Below, one piece after another: positions 9,001 through 15,000 of a DNA stretch of 42,500 bases. Position 1 is the stretch's first letter. The number at the start of each line of letters is the position of its first letter. The position numbers are program-made. The stretch is from Candidatus Krumholzibacteriia bacterium (GTDB lineage Bacteria; Krumholzibacteriota; Krumholzibacteriia; JAJRXK01), in NCBI GenBank assembly GCA_041484665.1, contig JBGPIA010000028.1:1-42500 (forward strand). The letters are read 5' to 3'.

Positions 9001-12000
9001 CCAACTCGATCACGGAGCTGCGCGATCTCCAGTGGGATCGGGGGTGTCACGTGGGCCGTGACGTCACGAACCGGTCACGCCGCTGGCGGGGCCCGCCCCT
9101 CGGCCGGCTCCTCGAACGGATTCCTGCTGCCCGCCTCTGCCAGGTGGCGCAGGATCCGATTCCCGACGCCCTCGTCCTGGATCACCGAGACGATCCGCAT
9201 CTCCACCGTGGACGGAGAAGCCCGAGTGCACCCAGCTCAGCAGGTTCTGGTGGAACTCCTCCGACAAACGCTGCTCCCGCCGCAGCGCGGCCAGCACCAA
9301 CCGGCGGAAGAGCTCGGTCAGCGCGGCGGCGTCCCAGTGACCCATGCGCTCGAAGTGGCCGTCGGGCGCGAAGGCGCCGTCGGTGACGATGGCGTGTACG
9401 TGCGGATGGAAGTTGGCGGCGTAGCTGCCGAGGGTCTGCAAGGCGGCCACCGTCCCCACCGACAGCGCCACGGCGGGGCCGGGCGGACGGCGGAGCTCTC
9501 GGGCCTTGCGGCTCCCCGGGGCGGCGCATAGGCTCCCGACAGCGCGTGCCCTGACAGCGGACGATGAGCAGCGTTCTCTCCAGGACCCGATCGAGGCCGA
9601 TCTGAAGGAGTCCAGGCATGGGGTTCGACCCACGGGAGCCCTTCGACGAGCTACCGGCGCTCCCTCCGCGGGTGGACGTCGAGACCAAGCGCGTGCTGAA
9701 GCGCACCGTAACGGCAACCCGCGCAGTGGCCGAGTTGAAGGGGGCGGGCGGGCTGATCCCGAACCAGGCTATCCTGATCAACGCCATTCCGCTGCAAGAG
9801 GCCAAGCTCAGCTCGGAGATCGAGAACGTCGTCACCACCCAGGACGAGCTGTTCCGGGCGGCCCTCAACGAGGACGCCCCTGCGGACTCCGCGACCAAGG
9901 AGGTGCTGCGCTACCGGAAGGCGCTGCGCCAGGGGTACGAGGCGCTGCAACATCGCCCTCTGAGCCTCGACTTGGTGCGCGAGGTGTGCTCCACCATCCG
10001 CGGCGAGCCGATGCGCTTCCGAACCGCCAAGGAGCAGGTCTTCATCGGCACCCCGTCCGGCAGCCGCGTGACCTATACGCCGCCGCGTGGCGGTCCGGCG
10101 CTGACCGCCAAGCTGCGCAATCTGGAGGCGTACCTGTTGGCCGCGGACGGCCCCGATCCGCTGGTCCGGATGGCGGTAGCGCACTACCAGTTCGAGGCCA
10201 TCCACCCGTTCACCGACGGCAATGGGCGCACCGGGCGCATCCTCAACATCCTGTACCTGCTGGACGCGGGCTTGCTCGAGATCCCGGTGTTGTACTTGAG
10301 CCGGTTCATCATCCAGCACAAGGCTGACTATTACCGGCTGCTGAGAGCCGTGACCGAGAAGGGCGACTGGGAAGCCTGGCTGCTGTTCATCCTGCAAGGG
10401 CTCGAGGAGACGGCGGAATGGACCACCGACCGCATCCGCGCCATCCGCGACCTGCTGGAAGCGACCGCCGAAACCTGCCGCCACGAGCTGCCCGCCATCT
10501 ATTCCCGGGAACTGGTCGAGCTGATCTTCCGGCTGCCCTACTGCAAGATCGCGTTCGTCGTGGACGCCGGGATCGCCCAGCGCAAGACCGCCTCCGAGTA
10601 CCTGCAGGAGCTGGAGCGGGTGGGCATCCTGGCCAGCGAGAAGCGTGGGCGGGAGGTCATCTATCGCCACCCGGCCCTGTTGAAGATCCTGGCGGCCTAG
10701 GGCGCCTTCGGGACATGTCCATTTTCTTTGGATTCTTGGACACGTTCCGGGGACGTGTCCACGGCGTGCCCGGGATCGCTGAAGGCGGGGCCCTGCGGTG
10801 AGCGGAAGTGGTTTCTATCGACACACCATCGACGAACCACCTCTCTGAGCGCTGTGCTTTGAGCTCGGCGCGCACTTCCCGGCCGACCCGCGCTCCTCGG
10901 CTACGCTTCCGGCGCCTTGGCGCACCGTCACTGACCTCGTCATAGCCAGCCCCCCCGCAGGGGTGGCGGCGGTGCGCGCCGCCGCGGGGCGAGCTTCCGC
11001 GTGGGAGAACGGCGTGCCCAACATCGAAGAAGCGGCCGCCGGAGCTGTGGCCAGGGCCAGCCTTTGCGGTTGGGGGCGCGCGCTCGGGGGAGGGTGCCCC
11101 GTCGCGACGCGCCAGCTCGGCGCCGAGCGGATAGAACTGCTCATCCACTGAGTGCGGCATGTTACCGCCACTGGGCGCGCCAGCGCCCGTGTCATGGGCA
11201 CACCCCGGCACCCGCGTCCCCATGGGGATCGCCGGGAGGCCTGGTCTGGAGTCTGGGTCATGCCGCCGGGGGCGCGCGAGAGGCTTGCGACTCGAGCAGC
11301 TCGACCCCCCGTGCGCGCGAGGTGTCTGTGGATGCGGTCGACGACATCGAGGTTGGAGATGACGGCGACCATCTTCAGCTCGACACGGCAGCGGGGGCAG
11401 AGCAAGGGGGTCGACCTCGTAGATGCGGCGCAACAGCCTGCCCCAGCTGCGGCGGCGGGCGCGGGCAGCGGGGGTGTCGGTTGCGTCAGTGCTTCTGAAA
11501 TAGAGGCACGAATCTGGCCCGGCATGGGCGGAAGGTTTCCAGGGGGCGTTGACTGGCAGTCTGGTGCCGGCCCCCTGCCGGTGATAGGATCATGCGGATT
11601 CCCGACACGCCATCGGGCTGGCCACGACGCGCACAACCCATCCACCGAGGTGCCACCATGCGCAATCGAACGCAGTTCCTGTTCTTCCTCCCGCTCGTCT
11701 TCACGCTGCTGGCCATGCCATTCTCGGCCTTGGCGGCGGGGGATATAGTCATTCAGGCTGTGGGCTCTGTGCAGGGCCTCATCCAAGGCGAGGCAGTCGT
11801 GCCCGGCCACCTAAACTGGATTGACGTTTTCAGTTTCTCACATGGGGTCTCGACTCCCATCGGACCCAACGGCCTACCGACCGGTCCGCCGCAGACTTCT
11901 CTGCTGAGTATCATGGGGCGGTTCGACCGCTCCACGGTGAAGCTGTTCACGGCACATTCGACGCAGGAGACATTCTCGAACTTCAGGATGGAATGGGTCC

Positions 12001-15000
12001 AAGCAGGGACAGCGCAGACCCTCATCCGATACGAATTGGTCAACGCGCGCCTCATCGACGCTCAAGAATCTGGAAGCGCCGGTGGCGATGTAACTCCGAC
12101 CGTGAGCATGAGCTTTTCCTACTCGAGGATCAATATCACCGATGTGGTCCTGGGCACCACGGTGAGTTACGACTGGAACTCCGTTGCAACCGCGACGCCG
12201 GAGCCGTTGGCAAAGGGGATCTTGCTCCCCCCGGCTCCCAATCCGACGCGTGGCGAGACCGAGTTCCGCTTCTCGCTGCCCACCGGGAGCAACGCCGAGC
12301 TGACGCTCTTCGATCTGCGCGGTCGCGTGGTGCGCGAGCTGCATCGCGGTTGGACCTCGGCCGAGCCCGTGGTCGCCGTCTGGGATGGCACCGATGACCA
12401 AGGTATCAAGGTCGCACAGGGTCTCTACGTGGCGCGACTGACCTATCCGGGCACGGTGGTCACGCAGCGCATCGCTCTCGTGCGCTAAGTCTACGCACGG
12501 CGCCGGGCCCCCAAGGCAGGGGCCCGGTCCGCAATTCACTCTGTATCTACGGTTTTTCCAGCGCTGCCGACTGCTCGAGCACCTGCACACTGACCTCGTC
12601 GTGGCCAGCCCCCCCGCTGCGCCTGACGCCGTGGGCATGCGCGCGGGGCCGCCTGTCTCACCCAACTCACGCACGCCGGCGGTGCCCTCGTCTCGACGAG
12701 CGCCGGGAGGCGGTTGCGTCGACCCTCATGACCGCCGCGACCGCCAATCGCGACCGCCCACTCGATCACGGAGCTGCGCGATCTCTAGCGGGACCGGGGG
12801 GTGTCACGTGGGCCGTGACGTCACGAACCGGTCACGCCGCCGGCGGGGCCCGCCCCTCGGCCGGCTCCTCGAACGGATCCCTGCCGCCTGTCATTGCCAG
12901 GTGGCGCAGGATGCCGTCCACCACGCCCTCGTCCTGGATCACCGCCACGATCCGCATCTCCACCCACACCGCGGACATAGCAGCGGGTCCGCCTCGTAGA
13001 TCCGCCGCAGCAGCCGCGCCCAGCTGCACCGGCGCGCGCGCTGCTCGGCGCTCTGCGCTGGCGTGGTGTTCCGGGGAGCCGCTGCCGCCGGTGGTGCGGC
13101 AGCACGGCTCGCCTCGCTGCGCCGCCGCGCCCCCCGACTGCGGTTGGCGTACCAGCCGTAGTACCCACAGGACTGCAACCTCGAGCGGGGTCGCGGGCGG
13201 CACGGTCGTCATCACGCATCCTTGCCATCCGTACGCCGGCCGGGAGGTCTGTGTTGTCCGCGCCGATCGCCGCCGCGGAGATCTCCTGAGCCTGGTGGTC
13301 CGGCTGCCCGATGGAAGCACCCAGTGCATGCCCGTGGCCTGGACGGATCGGGCCGCGCCCGATTCTCACGTGATCGGCGCTTCACCACGAGCGCAGCTCT
13401 CGGGTCTTGCCCTGCTCGAGGTCCTGGACTGGCTCGACGGGTTGCATAGCGGGTCTTGACGGGAGCGGACGGGATGGAGCACTCTGGGCATGTATTCACA
13501 GGGTCAGATCAACATGGCTCGAACACCGTCACGTCGAAGGCTGCCCAGCAAGCGCGCACGGGAGCGCCTGCTCGCCCAGCTGCCCGATCTGCGGCAGATC
13601 CTGCGCGGCTCGCTGGTCACGCGCTACCGCCGCTGCGGCCGCTCCAATTGCCACTGTGCCGCGCCGCAGGATCCTGGTCATGGGCCGGCCTACTACCTGA
13701 TGGTGACGACGGGCCCGGGCGAGACGGTGCAGATCTACGTCCCGGCCCGCATCAAGCCCGACGTCGAGGCCTGGCTCGAGAATTTCCAGCGCGTGCGCGA
13801 CACGCTGGAGCAGATCTCGTCGATCAACCGGGAGCTGCTGCGCCAGGGGCGGCTCTTCGAGGAGGACTGAGCTGCGCGCCACCGCGGGCAGGCCGACGGA
13901 CAGCGTGGCCCTACCGGCGCCCGGTTGGCAGCCGCAGCCGTGTCCGCCACGGACGGATCGCGCTGCAGGGCCGCTGCCGGAGCTGGACCGAACGAGGATC
14001 GAGGAGATCCTCTGCGCGATGCTGATCTCCTCGGTACAAGACGTTCAATCGGGTGTCGTGCGTGAGCCAAAGAGGAAGTATGGCCGTGGGAAAGATCGGC
14101 TGGCAGCACCTGAATCGTAAGGCGTGCCTGTATGTGCGCCAGTCCTCGCTGGCCCAGGTTACGCACCACCGGGAGAGCACGGCCCGCCAGTACAACCTGC
14201 GCGAGCGGGCGGTCGCGCTGGGGTGGGCGGCCGAACAGGTCGAGGTGATCGACGAGGATCAGGGGCTCTCGGGCGCGAGCGCGGTGGGTCGCGAAGGCTT
14301 CCAGCGCTTGGTCTCCGATGTGGCGCTGGGCCAGGTGGGGGCGGTGCTGGGGCTGGAGGTCAGCCGGCTGGCCCGCTCGTGCGCGGATTGGTACCGGCTG
14401 CTGGAGGTAGCGGCCCTGGCCGGGACCTTGATCGTCGACGAGGAGGGCGTCTACGACCCCAATCACTACAACGACCGGCTGTTGCTGGGGCTCAAGGGGA
14501 CCCTCAGCGAGGCGGAGTTGCACTTTCTCAAGCAGCGCATGATCGGTGGCCGCCGCAACAAGGCGTTGCGCGGCGAGTATCGCATTCGTCTGCCGGTGGG
14601 CTACGTGTGGGAGAAGGAAGCCGGGATCCGGATGGATCCCGACGAGCGCGTGCGCGACACGGTCGCGCTCTTCTTCCGCTGCTTCGCACGGCTGGGCACG
14701 GCGGCGGCGGTGGCCCGCCACTTCGAGCAGCTGCGCCAGCCGTTTCCGCGCCGCGACGGCTGGGGGAGTCCCGACGTGGCCGTCAGCTGGGGGCCGTTGA
14801 GCTGGTCGCGAGCGGCGGAGATACTGCGCAGTCCGATCTACGCCGGAGTCTATGCCTACGCACGGAAGGCGTCGGCGGAGATGGATGCGGAGGATCCGTG
14901 TGCGGGGGGTCGGATCTTGATTCCCGGCGCGCACCCTGGCTATATCACAGTCGAGCAGTACGAGCGCAACCTGGCGCGTCTGGCGGGCAACCGGAATCTC

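Follow-up and report, generated by a model that had tools for sequence, protein, structure and literature searches.

A 276-aa protein encoded by the open reading frame at positions 11658–12488 (forward strand) of the window, i.e., the 42,500-nucleotide stretch of a Candidatus Krumholzibacteriia contig analyzed here, is confirmed to combine a signal peptide, a complete Hcp domain and a type A C-terminal sorting domain (CTD) for type IX secretion (the T9SS). Its family is uncoupled from contractile machines. The best reading, to which we give an even chance, is that of a domesticated, non-contractile Hcp serving as T9SS-type cargo.

The architecture of the gene, as delimited by profile matches and AlphaFold2 (11658..12488, forward strand like all the features within it), agrees with what the first-pass annotation had proposed and was recovered by Pfam, TIGR04183, AlphaFold2 and Foldseek. 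A GAGGTG motif resembling a ribosome-binding site (11647..11652, 5 nt 5' of the ATG) favors the start at 11658 over an upstream ATG at 11592, and the alignment of the relatives begins at the same methionine. The predicted Sec/SPI signal peptide (residues 1–26, 11658..11735; by alignment and rule) ends in A-x-A, with A24 and A26 conserved; once it is cleaved off, the mature protein would begin with the first strand of the Hcp domain. Residues 29–174 (11742..12179) form the Hcp domain, a nine-strand beta-sandwich with one helix according to Pfam, AlphaFold2 and Foldseek. It includes an extended beta2-beta3 loop (residues 62–82, 11841..11903), the alignment equivalent of the ring-stacking loop. 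Its glycines and prolines are kept, but an Arg and a His present just after it in Hcps of the T6SS have been lost. An Ala/Thr/Pro linker (12180..12215), probably the region cleaved by PorU, has low pLDDT at residues 177–198, and comparable linkers are found ahead of other CTDs in this genome. It leads to the type A-like sorting domain (FlgD_ig/Por_Secre_tail by profiles and alignment, 12216..12485), the most conserved part of the family. The Pfam match to T6SS_HCP (PF05638) reached 66.6 bits (cut-off 23.5; residues 38–160, model 4–127 of 129), that to FlgD_ig 31.8 bits, and the T9SS type A model TIGR04183 29.4 bits (cut-off 23). TIGR03344 (Hcp) scored 54.1, slightly below its cut-off of 58.9, which two relatives exceed. 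AlphaFold2 predicted two well-folded domains joined by a disordered linker at 177–198 (pLDDT 82, pTM 0.55). Foldseek ranked structures of Hcp highest (6A2V with E 1.8e-12; target-based TM 0.76–0.83 in the first five matches), and the best ESM Atlas scores, which we take as leads only, were 0.80 for the whole protein and 0.88 for residues 1–178, the latter to Hcp clusters of 169–177 aa.

The signal peptide was judged by a rule and by alignment. The rule accepts 47 of the 48 full-length family members and 515 of the genome's 3577 other genes, and rejects all 15 of the phylum's full-length canonical Hcps. As a positive control the rule was weak (53 of 191 CTD genes pass), probably because start calls have truncated N-termini.

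We obtained the same family counts as had been given before: out of 2205 candidates, 51 relatives passed E<=1e-59, and of these 47 measure 273–278 aa and 48 carry both Pfam domains. Within the phylum, our result differs slightly from the first-pass figure of 15 out of 208 genomes at E<=1e-25; the alignment search at this threshold matched 22 genomes, 16 with a full-length gene (15 intact and one, G027, broken by stops) and six through the CTD only. Three of the 16 carriers have paralogues. Our count of genes in the genome with a C-terminal CTD, made with a different threshold, is 191 rather than the 158 reported earlier. The Krumholzibacteriota family has a single origin. In the Hcp-domain tree, all 30 sampled family domains fall on one side of a branch with SH-aLRT 96, and in the CTD tree 22 of 24 family CTDs form one clade with a single one of the 332 other CTDs; the family failed to come out as a clade in one FastTree run. 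The Hcp domain comes from the Vibrio-type lineage, its nearest in the tree and one in which signal-peptide forms are common, and not from the phylum's own T6SS, contrary to what the idea of a tube protein taken over had implied. The copy in this genome looks horizontally acquired. The best plasmid match, in Gemmatirosa, was rejected as a family member, being a canonical Hcp inside a T6SS cluster.

Independence from the T6SS, already suspected in the first reading, is supported by gene context and genome content. No T6SS core gene was found near the family in any of 19 loci (309,645 bases), while the canonical Hcp control gave 19 of 19. No TssC/VipB was found in 13 of the 16 carrier genomes, which are 72–100% complete, and 11 of the 16 have no sheath match of any tested kind; a T6SS sheath is present in three and a phage-type sheath in four. 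The genome's own T6SS does use two TssD (PF17642) tube genes with a TssC (PF17541), as noted previously. A T6SS tube component is expected to lack a signal peptide, to assemble in the cytoplasm and to be encoded with a cognate sheath and baseplate; the family has a signal peptide, no T6SS core gene at its loci and, in most carrier genomes, no T6SS sheath match.

What was found matches T9SS type A cargo: a rule-based Sec signal, a type A CTD and a host with SprA, PorV and PorU. SprA-like genes occur in 16 of 16 carriers and PorU-like genes equally (13 above the cut-off). In this genome SprA scores 441 bits against a cut-off of 200, over 2014 of 2506 residues, and the PorU gene adjoins a PorV-family gene. 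Since SprA was found in 160 of the 208 genomes of the phylum, chance alone would be expected to bring it together with the family. The presence of SprA, PorV and PorU to act on the CTD is supported, but the motor was not recognized: profile searches of this genome gave no match for GldL, GldM, GldN or PorP and only a sub-cut-off one for GldK, and GldM matched in 0 of 208 genomes, in a search in which no positive control matched either. The host T9SS has no recognizable GldKLMN motor, a result in which divergence and absence are indistinguishable.

The gene stands between degenerate IS91-like repeats, one upstream (10802..11487; Y2 transposase, similar to the PF04986 frame at 22597–23466) and one downstream (12561..13158, by repeat comparison). 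A 9-bp GC hairpin without a T run, seen by eye 3' of the stop (12503..12527, forward strand), is a weak candidate for a terminator; the promoter and terminator scan found neither. In four further sediment runs the gene is covered by contigs for which no letter difference or indel is listed, no single piece spanning it; no RNA run was listed. A joint 10949–12610, present in four runs, would remove the gene. We have not taken it as a deletion because both ends are copies of one IS-like repeat, also present at 8.7–9.2 kb. Among the scanned loci there were no conserved neighbors outside three close genomes, and the neighbors scanned included none that would indicate a ligand, no immunity or toxin genes and no phage genes.

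The fusion is maintained as a unit under purifying selection. Hcp-domain dN/dS ranged between 0.31 and 0.79 (median 0.42, nine pairs), as compared with 0.53 in 48 pairs of canonical Hcps; the values come from simple counting, which inflates them in these GC-rich genomes, and for this reason we rely on them only relative to canonical Hcp. The trees, the purifying selection and the CTD clade support a stable fusion rather than a leftover of domain shuffling. In three syntenic genomes the Hcp domain is 60–66% identical, as compared to 88–91% for the CTD, 87–88% for the neighboring peptidase and 96–97% for MDH; this faster evolution could reflect relaxed constraint. Helix, beta2 and beta9 make up the subunit interface in Hcp3 (PMC13323088), and the positions conserved there in T6SS Hcps are largely retained (D90, L96, E104, I55, F60, W173), whereas R78, H80, P94, W160 and D171, invariant in T6SS-cluster Hcps, are replaced. 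An extended loop drives ring stacking in one Hcp (PMC4650826); conservation of the beta2-beta3 loop is slightly higher than that of the rest of the domain (0.67 vs. 0.61). A four-copy complex prediction of the Hcp domain (median 0.39, mark 0.42, controls 0.00) was used neither for nor against assembly.

For the domesticated T9SS cargo that we favor, the following route may be proposed. The protein would almost certainly be exported by Sec and its signal cleaved after Ala26. To judge by the genes found and by the pathway as established elsewhere, the CTD would very probably lead the folded monomer through the SprA translocon, PorV would hand it to PorU and the CTD would be removed. The Hcp ring measures 80–85 A (PMC4650826, PMC13323088), the SprA pore is of ca. 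7 nm and Hcp3 is monomeric at 0.1 mg/ml, all of which fits export as a monomer. By homology, it is rather likely that the bare subunit of ca. 150 aa, whether fixed to the envelope or set free, would become concentrated there and assemble into the usual six-membered ring. More tentatively, the ring may then offer a binding cup or a multivalent scaffold to external proteins or polymers, with the lumen that holds cargo within the T6SS put to new use and no firing by a sheath.

Loss of the ring altogether, so that the exported beta-sandwich would bind as a monomer at the surface, is unlikely. The fast evolution of the domain, the several T6SS-invariant residues that are gone, the monomeric state of Hcp3 at low concentration and a ring wider than the SprA pore would all suit it, but the largely retained interface positions and a dN/dS within the canonical range speak against it, and six-domain chains suggest selection for a six-fold arrangement in other Hcp lineages. 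Exported subunits might conversely go further and build tubes or a pilus-like filament outside the cell by stacking, in which case the protein would be a T9SS cargo that self-assembles much as S-layer subunits do. The slightly more conserved loop, of a kind that stacks rings in one Hcp, and the canonical size that the subunit would have after removal of both tags point this way, as does the existence of self-assembling T9SS cargo, TfsA/TfsB, described in PMC10202324; we regard it as improbable.

A defensive sponge, with exported rings trapping the Hcp-type cargo effectors of competitors' T6SS, appears quite improbable: the patchy distribution, paralogues in three of 16 carriers, fast evolution and probable horizontal transfer would suit a conflict gene, but none of the scanned neighbors was of the immunity or toxin type. 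T6SS effectors enter beyond the outer surface, whereas T9SS cargo ends at that surface. The Hcp lumen does wrap cargo proteins, although effector recognition is specific (PMC13323088). Finally, the protein could be a T6SS or eCIS tube subunit (an "evolved" Hcp or an orphan one), or domain shuffling could have produced it without a function. This would agree with the fold and name of the protein, the sheaths found in a minority of carriers, the broken G027 copy and the usually orphan state of evolved Hcps (bioRxiv 2023.03.26.534264). However, the signal peptide takes the protein away from the site of tube assembly, the cytoplasm, 11 of the 16 carriers are without any sheath match, the genome's T6SS has its TssD-type tubes and the fusion is held together by selection, so that this already weakened explanation is very improbable.

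Among known systems, the T6SS tube Hcp/TssD of the Vibrio/Pseudomonas Hcp2-3 type (PF05638, TIGR03344; PDB 6A2V, 3HE1, 5MXN, 3EAA) is alike in fold, length, extended loop and most core and interface positions, besides being the nearest lineage. The present family differs by its added signal peptide and CTD, by never lying beside T6SS genes and occurring mostly in sheath-less genomes, and by its replaced invariant residues. Phage tail tubes with Ig decorations exist, and share a tube fold and an Ig-like domain with this protein. However, Foldseek matches to tail tube proteins were weak (best E 1.5e-6, 8–16% identity), and the protein is much nearer to Hcp, has a signal peptide and lacks phage genes among its scanned neighbors. 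Evolved Hcps (Hcp-ET) likewise join Hcp to a C-terminal extension encoded off the main cluster, but are described as fired by the T6SS, with toxin domains, and from hardly any genus other than Escherichia. In the present protein the extension serves as an export tag (FlgD_ig/TIGR04183) and is accompanied by a signal peptide; "signal peptide" and "T9SS" have 0 occurrences in that paper (bioRxiv 2023.03.26.534264). T9SS type A cargo, including TfsA/TfsB, shares the Sec signal, the type A CTD and SprA/PorV/PorU, with the pathway as given in PMC10202324; the differences are the passenger, a single Hcp domain, and a host phylum with no recognizable GldM motor.

The T9SS-tagged protein is one member of a broader set of exported or multi-domain Hcps. 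Within the best 150 of 14,534 PF05638 matches there were signal-peptide Hcps, some in Asgard archaea, and 47 with 5–7 Hcp domains in one chain. Some six-domain chains carry RTX or Ig tails. One, with no evident export signal, was predicted to fold as a rigid unit (pTM 0.73), its Foldseek comparison being with single PDB chains, which are unable to reveal a ring. Six-domain Hcps sit elsewhere in the tree than the T9SS family, and by analogy suggest support for a six-fold ring. Our literature search, which mostly excluded subscription journals and left out supplements, found nothing on signal-peptide, T9SS-tagged or six-domain Hcps. It is quite possible, though somewhat less likely than not, that Hcp has repeatedly left contractile machines to become a general extracellular ring module in bacteria and Asgard archaea. 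Its export would then have been taken over independently by Sec, Tat-like, T9SS, RTX/type I-like and also planctomycete-type signals, with fusion into six-domain single-chain rings where the route is an unfolded or one-chain one. The T9SS family would be one clear instance, a nanoring at the surface that takes up or transports cargo and injects nothing.

The T6SS is commonly called in genomes and secretomes from the presence of Hcp, regarded as its hallmark, and databases name the members of this family T6SS tubes even though a sheath is missing from most carriers. The Hcp tube fold seems to fulfil a further role, not described so far, at the cell surface. If true, exported Hcp and the natural six-domain chains would show a second function of the tube fold and would serve as direct models of how rings assemble beyond the cytoplasm, and the protein would provide a small cargo for the study of the motor-less-looking T9SS of Krumholzibacteriota.

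The ORF at positions 11658–12488 (+) of the window codes for a product of 276 aa that has a basic start, a hydrophobic core and an AxA end at its N-terminus, contains the Hcp domain in full (PF05638, 66.6 bits) and finishes in a FlgD_ig/TIGR04183 C-terminal sorting domain (CTD). The gene was also covered by contigs of four further runs, without listed differences. AlphaFold2, applied to a 49-row alignment, gave two confident domains separated by a disordered linker; Hcp structures were the top Foldseek matches, phage tail tubes matching far more weakly. The protein belongs to the Hcp protein family. 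Among 2205 candidates we found 51 relatives at E ≤ 1e-59, 47 of them 273–278 aa long and 48 with both domains. A simple signal-peptide rule was passed by 47 of the 48 full-length members vs. none of the 15 canonical Krumholzibacteriota Hcps, and by 515 of 3577 (14%) other genes; since its positive control was poor (53/191), the rule is taken as support, not proof. Judged by its signals, the family protein is a predicted T9SS type A cargo. Membership tests did not place it among T6SS tube components, nor among Hcp-ET, the “evolved” Hcps with a C-terminal toxin domain (bioRxiv 2023.03.26.534264). Searches of the open literature, covering listings and the opening lines of abstracts together with the papers cited here and PMC11495043, yielded no description of an Hcp of this kind.

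Scoring the best 12 candidates per genome, we found the full-length gene at 19 places in 16 of the 208 Krumholzibacteriota genomes, belonging to two families, with two copies in three genomes; records holding it include ones named Candidatus Krumholzibacteriia. Gene neighbors vary among these loci, with the exception of three close genomes. When 18 T6SS core proteins served as queries, no core gene was detected near the family gene at any of the 19 loci (309,645 bases), while the same queries matched all 19 canonical Hcp loci used as control (60,901 bases), one of them from the genome from which queries were taken. A T6SS sheath gene is present in three carrier genomes and a phage-type sheath in four; neither was found in 11 of the 16, some of them 95–100% complete. 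A separate T6SS, with two tubes of the TssD type, is encoded in the window's genome (G000). This cluster (L107, C1:205–223 kb) is of the Bacteroidota type (TssC PF17541, TssD PF17642); across the phylum, TssC of the PF17541 type occurs in 22 of 208 genomes and the VipB type in 21. Stops interrupt the reading frame in genome G027 (L016), one member of a tandem pair in G022 (L108:8816–10518) has a degenerate CTD, and G023 holds an additional gene of the same clade with signal peptide and Hcp domain but no CTD (L161:1862–2383).

A SprA-like gene was found in all 16 carriers, yet also in 160 of the 208 phylum genomes overall, and a PorU-like gene in all 16, 13 of them exceeding the cut-off. In the window's genome SprA scored 441 bits (cut-off 200) over the 2014 residues scanned, the PorU gene directly precedes a PorV-family gene, eight PorV/PorQ-family genes are over the cut-off and some 190 genes code for a product ending in a CTD; T9SS-related regions lie at C3:124–131 kb and C2:447–452 kb. 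GldL, GldM, GldN and PorP gave no match in this genome and GldK matched only below the cut-off, while GldM matched in none of the 208 phylum genomes in a search without positive control. With SprA, PorU and PorV present, the export route resembles a T9SS at the outer membrane. On sequence evidence, the motor of the Krumholzibacteriota T9SS appears to be missing or very divergent.

An IQ-TREE tree built from 78 rows put all 30 rows of the family on one side of a branch (SH-aLRT 96). They lie among the Vibrio-type Hcps, away from the Hcp1-type tubes that belong to the phylum itself (99); their closest rows, with low support, were Hcps with N-terminal extensions. One of two FastTree runs agreed, and the other split the family at the outgroup. 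In the CTD tree, 22 of 24 family CTDs formed one clade (0.96) together with a single one of the 332 other CTDs, probably that of the broken copy. Hcp domains and CTDs agree, so the fusion has a single origin and has been inherited as one unit. The dN/dS of the Hcp domain in the family (0.31–0.79, median 0.42, nine non-independent pairs) was similar to that of canonical Hcps calculated in the same way (median 0.53, 48 pairs), while the CTD is tighter (median 0.23). Across three syntenic genomes, identity is 60–66% in the Hcp domain vs. 87–97% in its neighbors, indicating fast evolution of this domain.

The window's copy was probably acquired horizontally, since it nests among sequences from another family in the IQ-TREE tree, has an outlying GC3 of 0.77 (0.8th percentile of 2948 genes) and lies between two decayed IS91-like repeats. 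In positions 8700–24100, decayed IS91-like elements (Y2 transposase), at least five of them, alternate with single passenger genes: a Fic protein gene (9618–10700), the Hcp gene, DUF6788 with a split serine recombinase (13490–15966) and an FG-GAP/ASPIC CTD protein (17302–21321). Beyond them lies a beta-glucan utilization-like cluster (24177–41913) with two GH16 genes (one with CTD), a ROK regulator, a GH2-like protein, an MFS sugar transporter and more CTD proteins. On the other side, an operon (4342–8187, −) codes for a ketoacyl synthase III with a fused haem-oxygenase-like domain and, after it, DUF6999.

A profile search with the Hcp domain only gave 14,534 representatives, of which we examined the 150 highest-scoring; this sample favors the present family and multi-domain scores. 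These 150 comprise 15 T9SS fusions, 66 single-domain Hcps (59 with a hydrophobic N-terminal stretch; two clusters named from Hodarchaeales archaea), 22 with 2–4 domains and 47 with 5–7, exactly six in 31. RTX repeats were found in 3 of 19 scanned proteins with at least five domains, and Ig, cadherin or dockerin domains in several; 13 of the 47 match a planctomycete-type export motif. These tandem proteins (P0057–P0204, e.g., P0069, P0061, P0135, P0071, P0079; ca. 650–4700 aa) branch away from the window's family and are candidates for natural single-chain Hcp rings. For P0069, a six-domain chain of 909 aa without evident export signal, the predicted pTM of 0.73 would imply one rigid arrangement. 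Sec- or Tat-like N-termini were seen on single-domain Hcps (P0115, P0129 and relatives, including Hodarchaeales archaea; loci L168, L173, L179, L206, L214, L217, L221, L227, L232, L240 and L244), and no T6SS core gene was found in the loci of signal-bearing single-domain Hcps. Of 82 loci in the sister group of Vibrio type (80 from metagenomes and two more), 13 looked signal-bearing by eye, with a T6SS core match in none of them vs. 15 of the 69 others, on mostly short contigs; in three, the signal is joined directly to an N-terminus of the usual T6SS Hcp kind. Some Vibrio-type Hcps (L170, L205, L207, L233, L239) stand alone and lack a signal peptide; they have housekeeping-like neighbors and no T6SS core match within their 14–16 kb loci.

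In the T6SS protein Hcp3, subunits meet through helix 1 and beta6 on one face and beta2 and beta9 on the other (PMC13323088). By an approximate mapping, the conserved interface positions are mostly kept in the 49 family rows (D90 100%, L96 84%, E104 92%, I55 100%, F60 86%, W173 80%), whereas most rows have other residues at R78, H80, P94, W160 and D171, which do not vary among 17 T6SS-cluster Hcps. Indirectly, this would fit a fold still able to form rings, with changes on the faces used for stacking or for the sheath. A T6SS part or junk is a very improbable reading, and an effector sponge an improbable one; an extracellular tube is doubtful, and a monomeric surface domain is a minor possibility. 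Hcp rings are 80–85 Å wide (PMC4650826; PMC13323088), the SprA pore measures ca. 7 nm (PMC12398890) and Hcp3 is a monomer at 0.1 mg/ml; thus the simplest order of events would be export of the monomer and assembly once it is concentrated at the surface. In the best reading, to which we give about an even chance, the protein would be exported via Sec, the CTD would direct its passage through SprA/PorV and PorU would clip the CTD (a pathway described in PMC10202324), leaving an Hcp of canonical size that may form a ring, free or anchored, and serve as a binding cup or scaffold.
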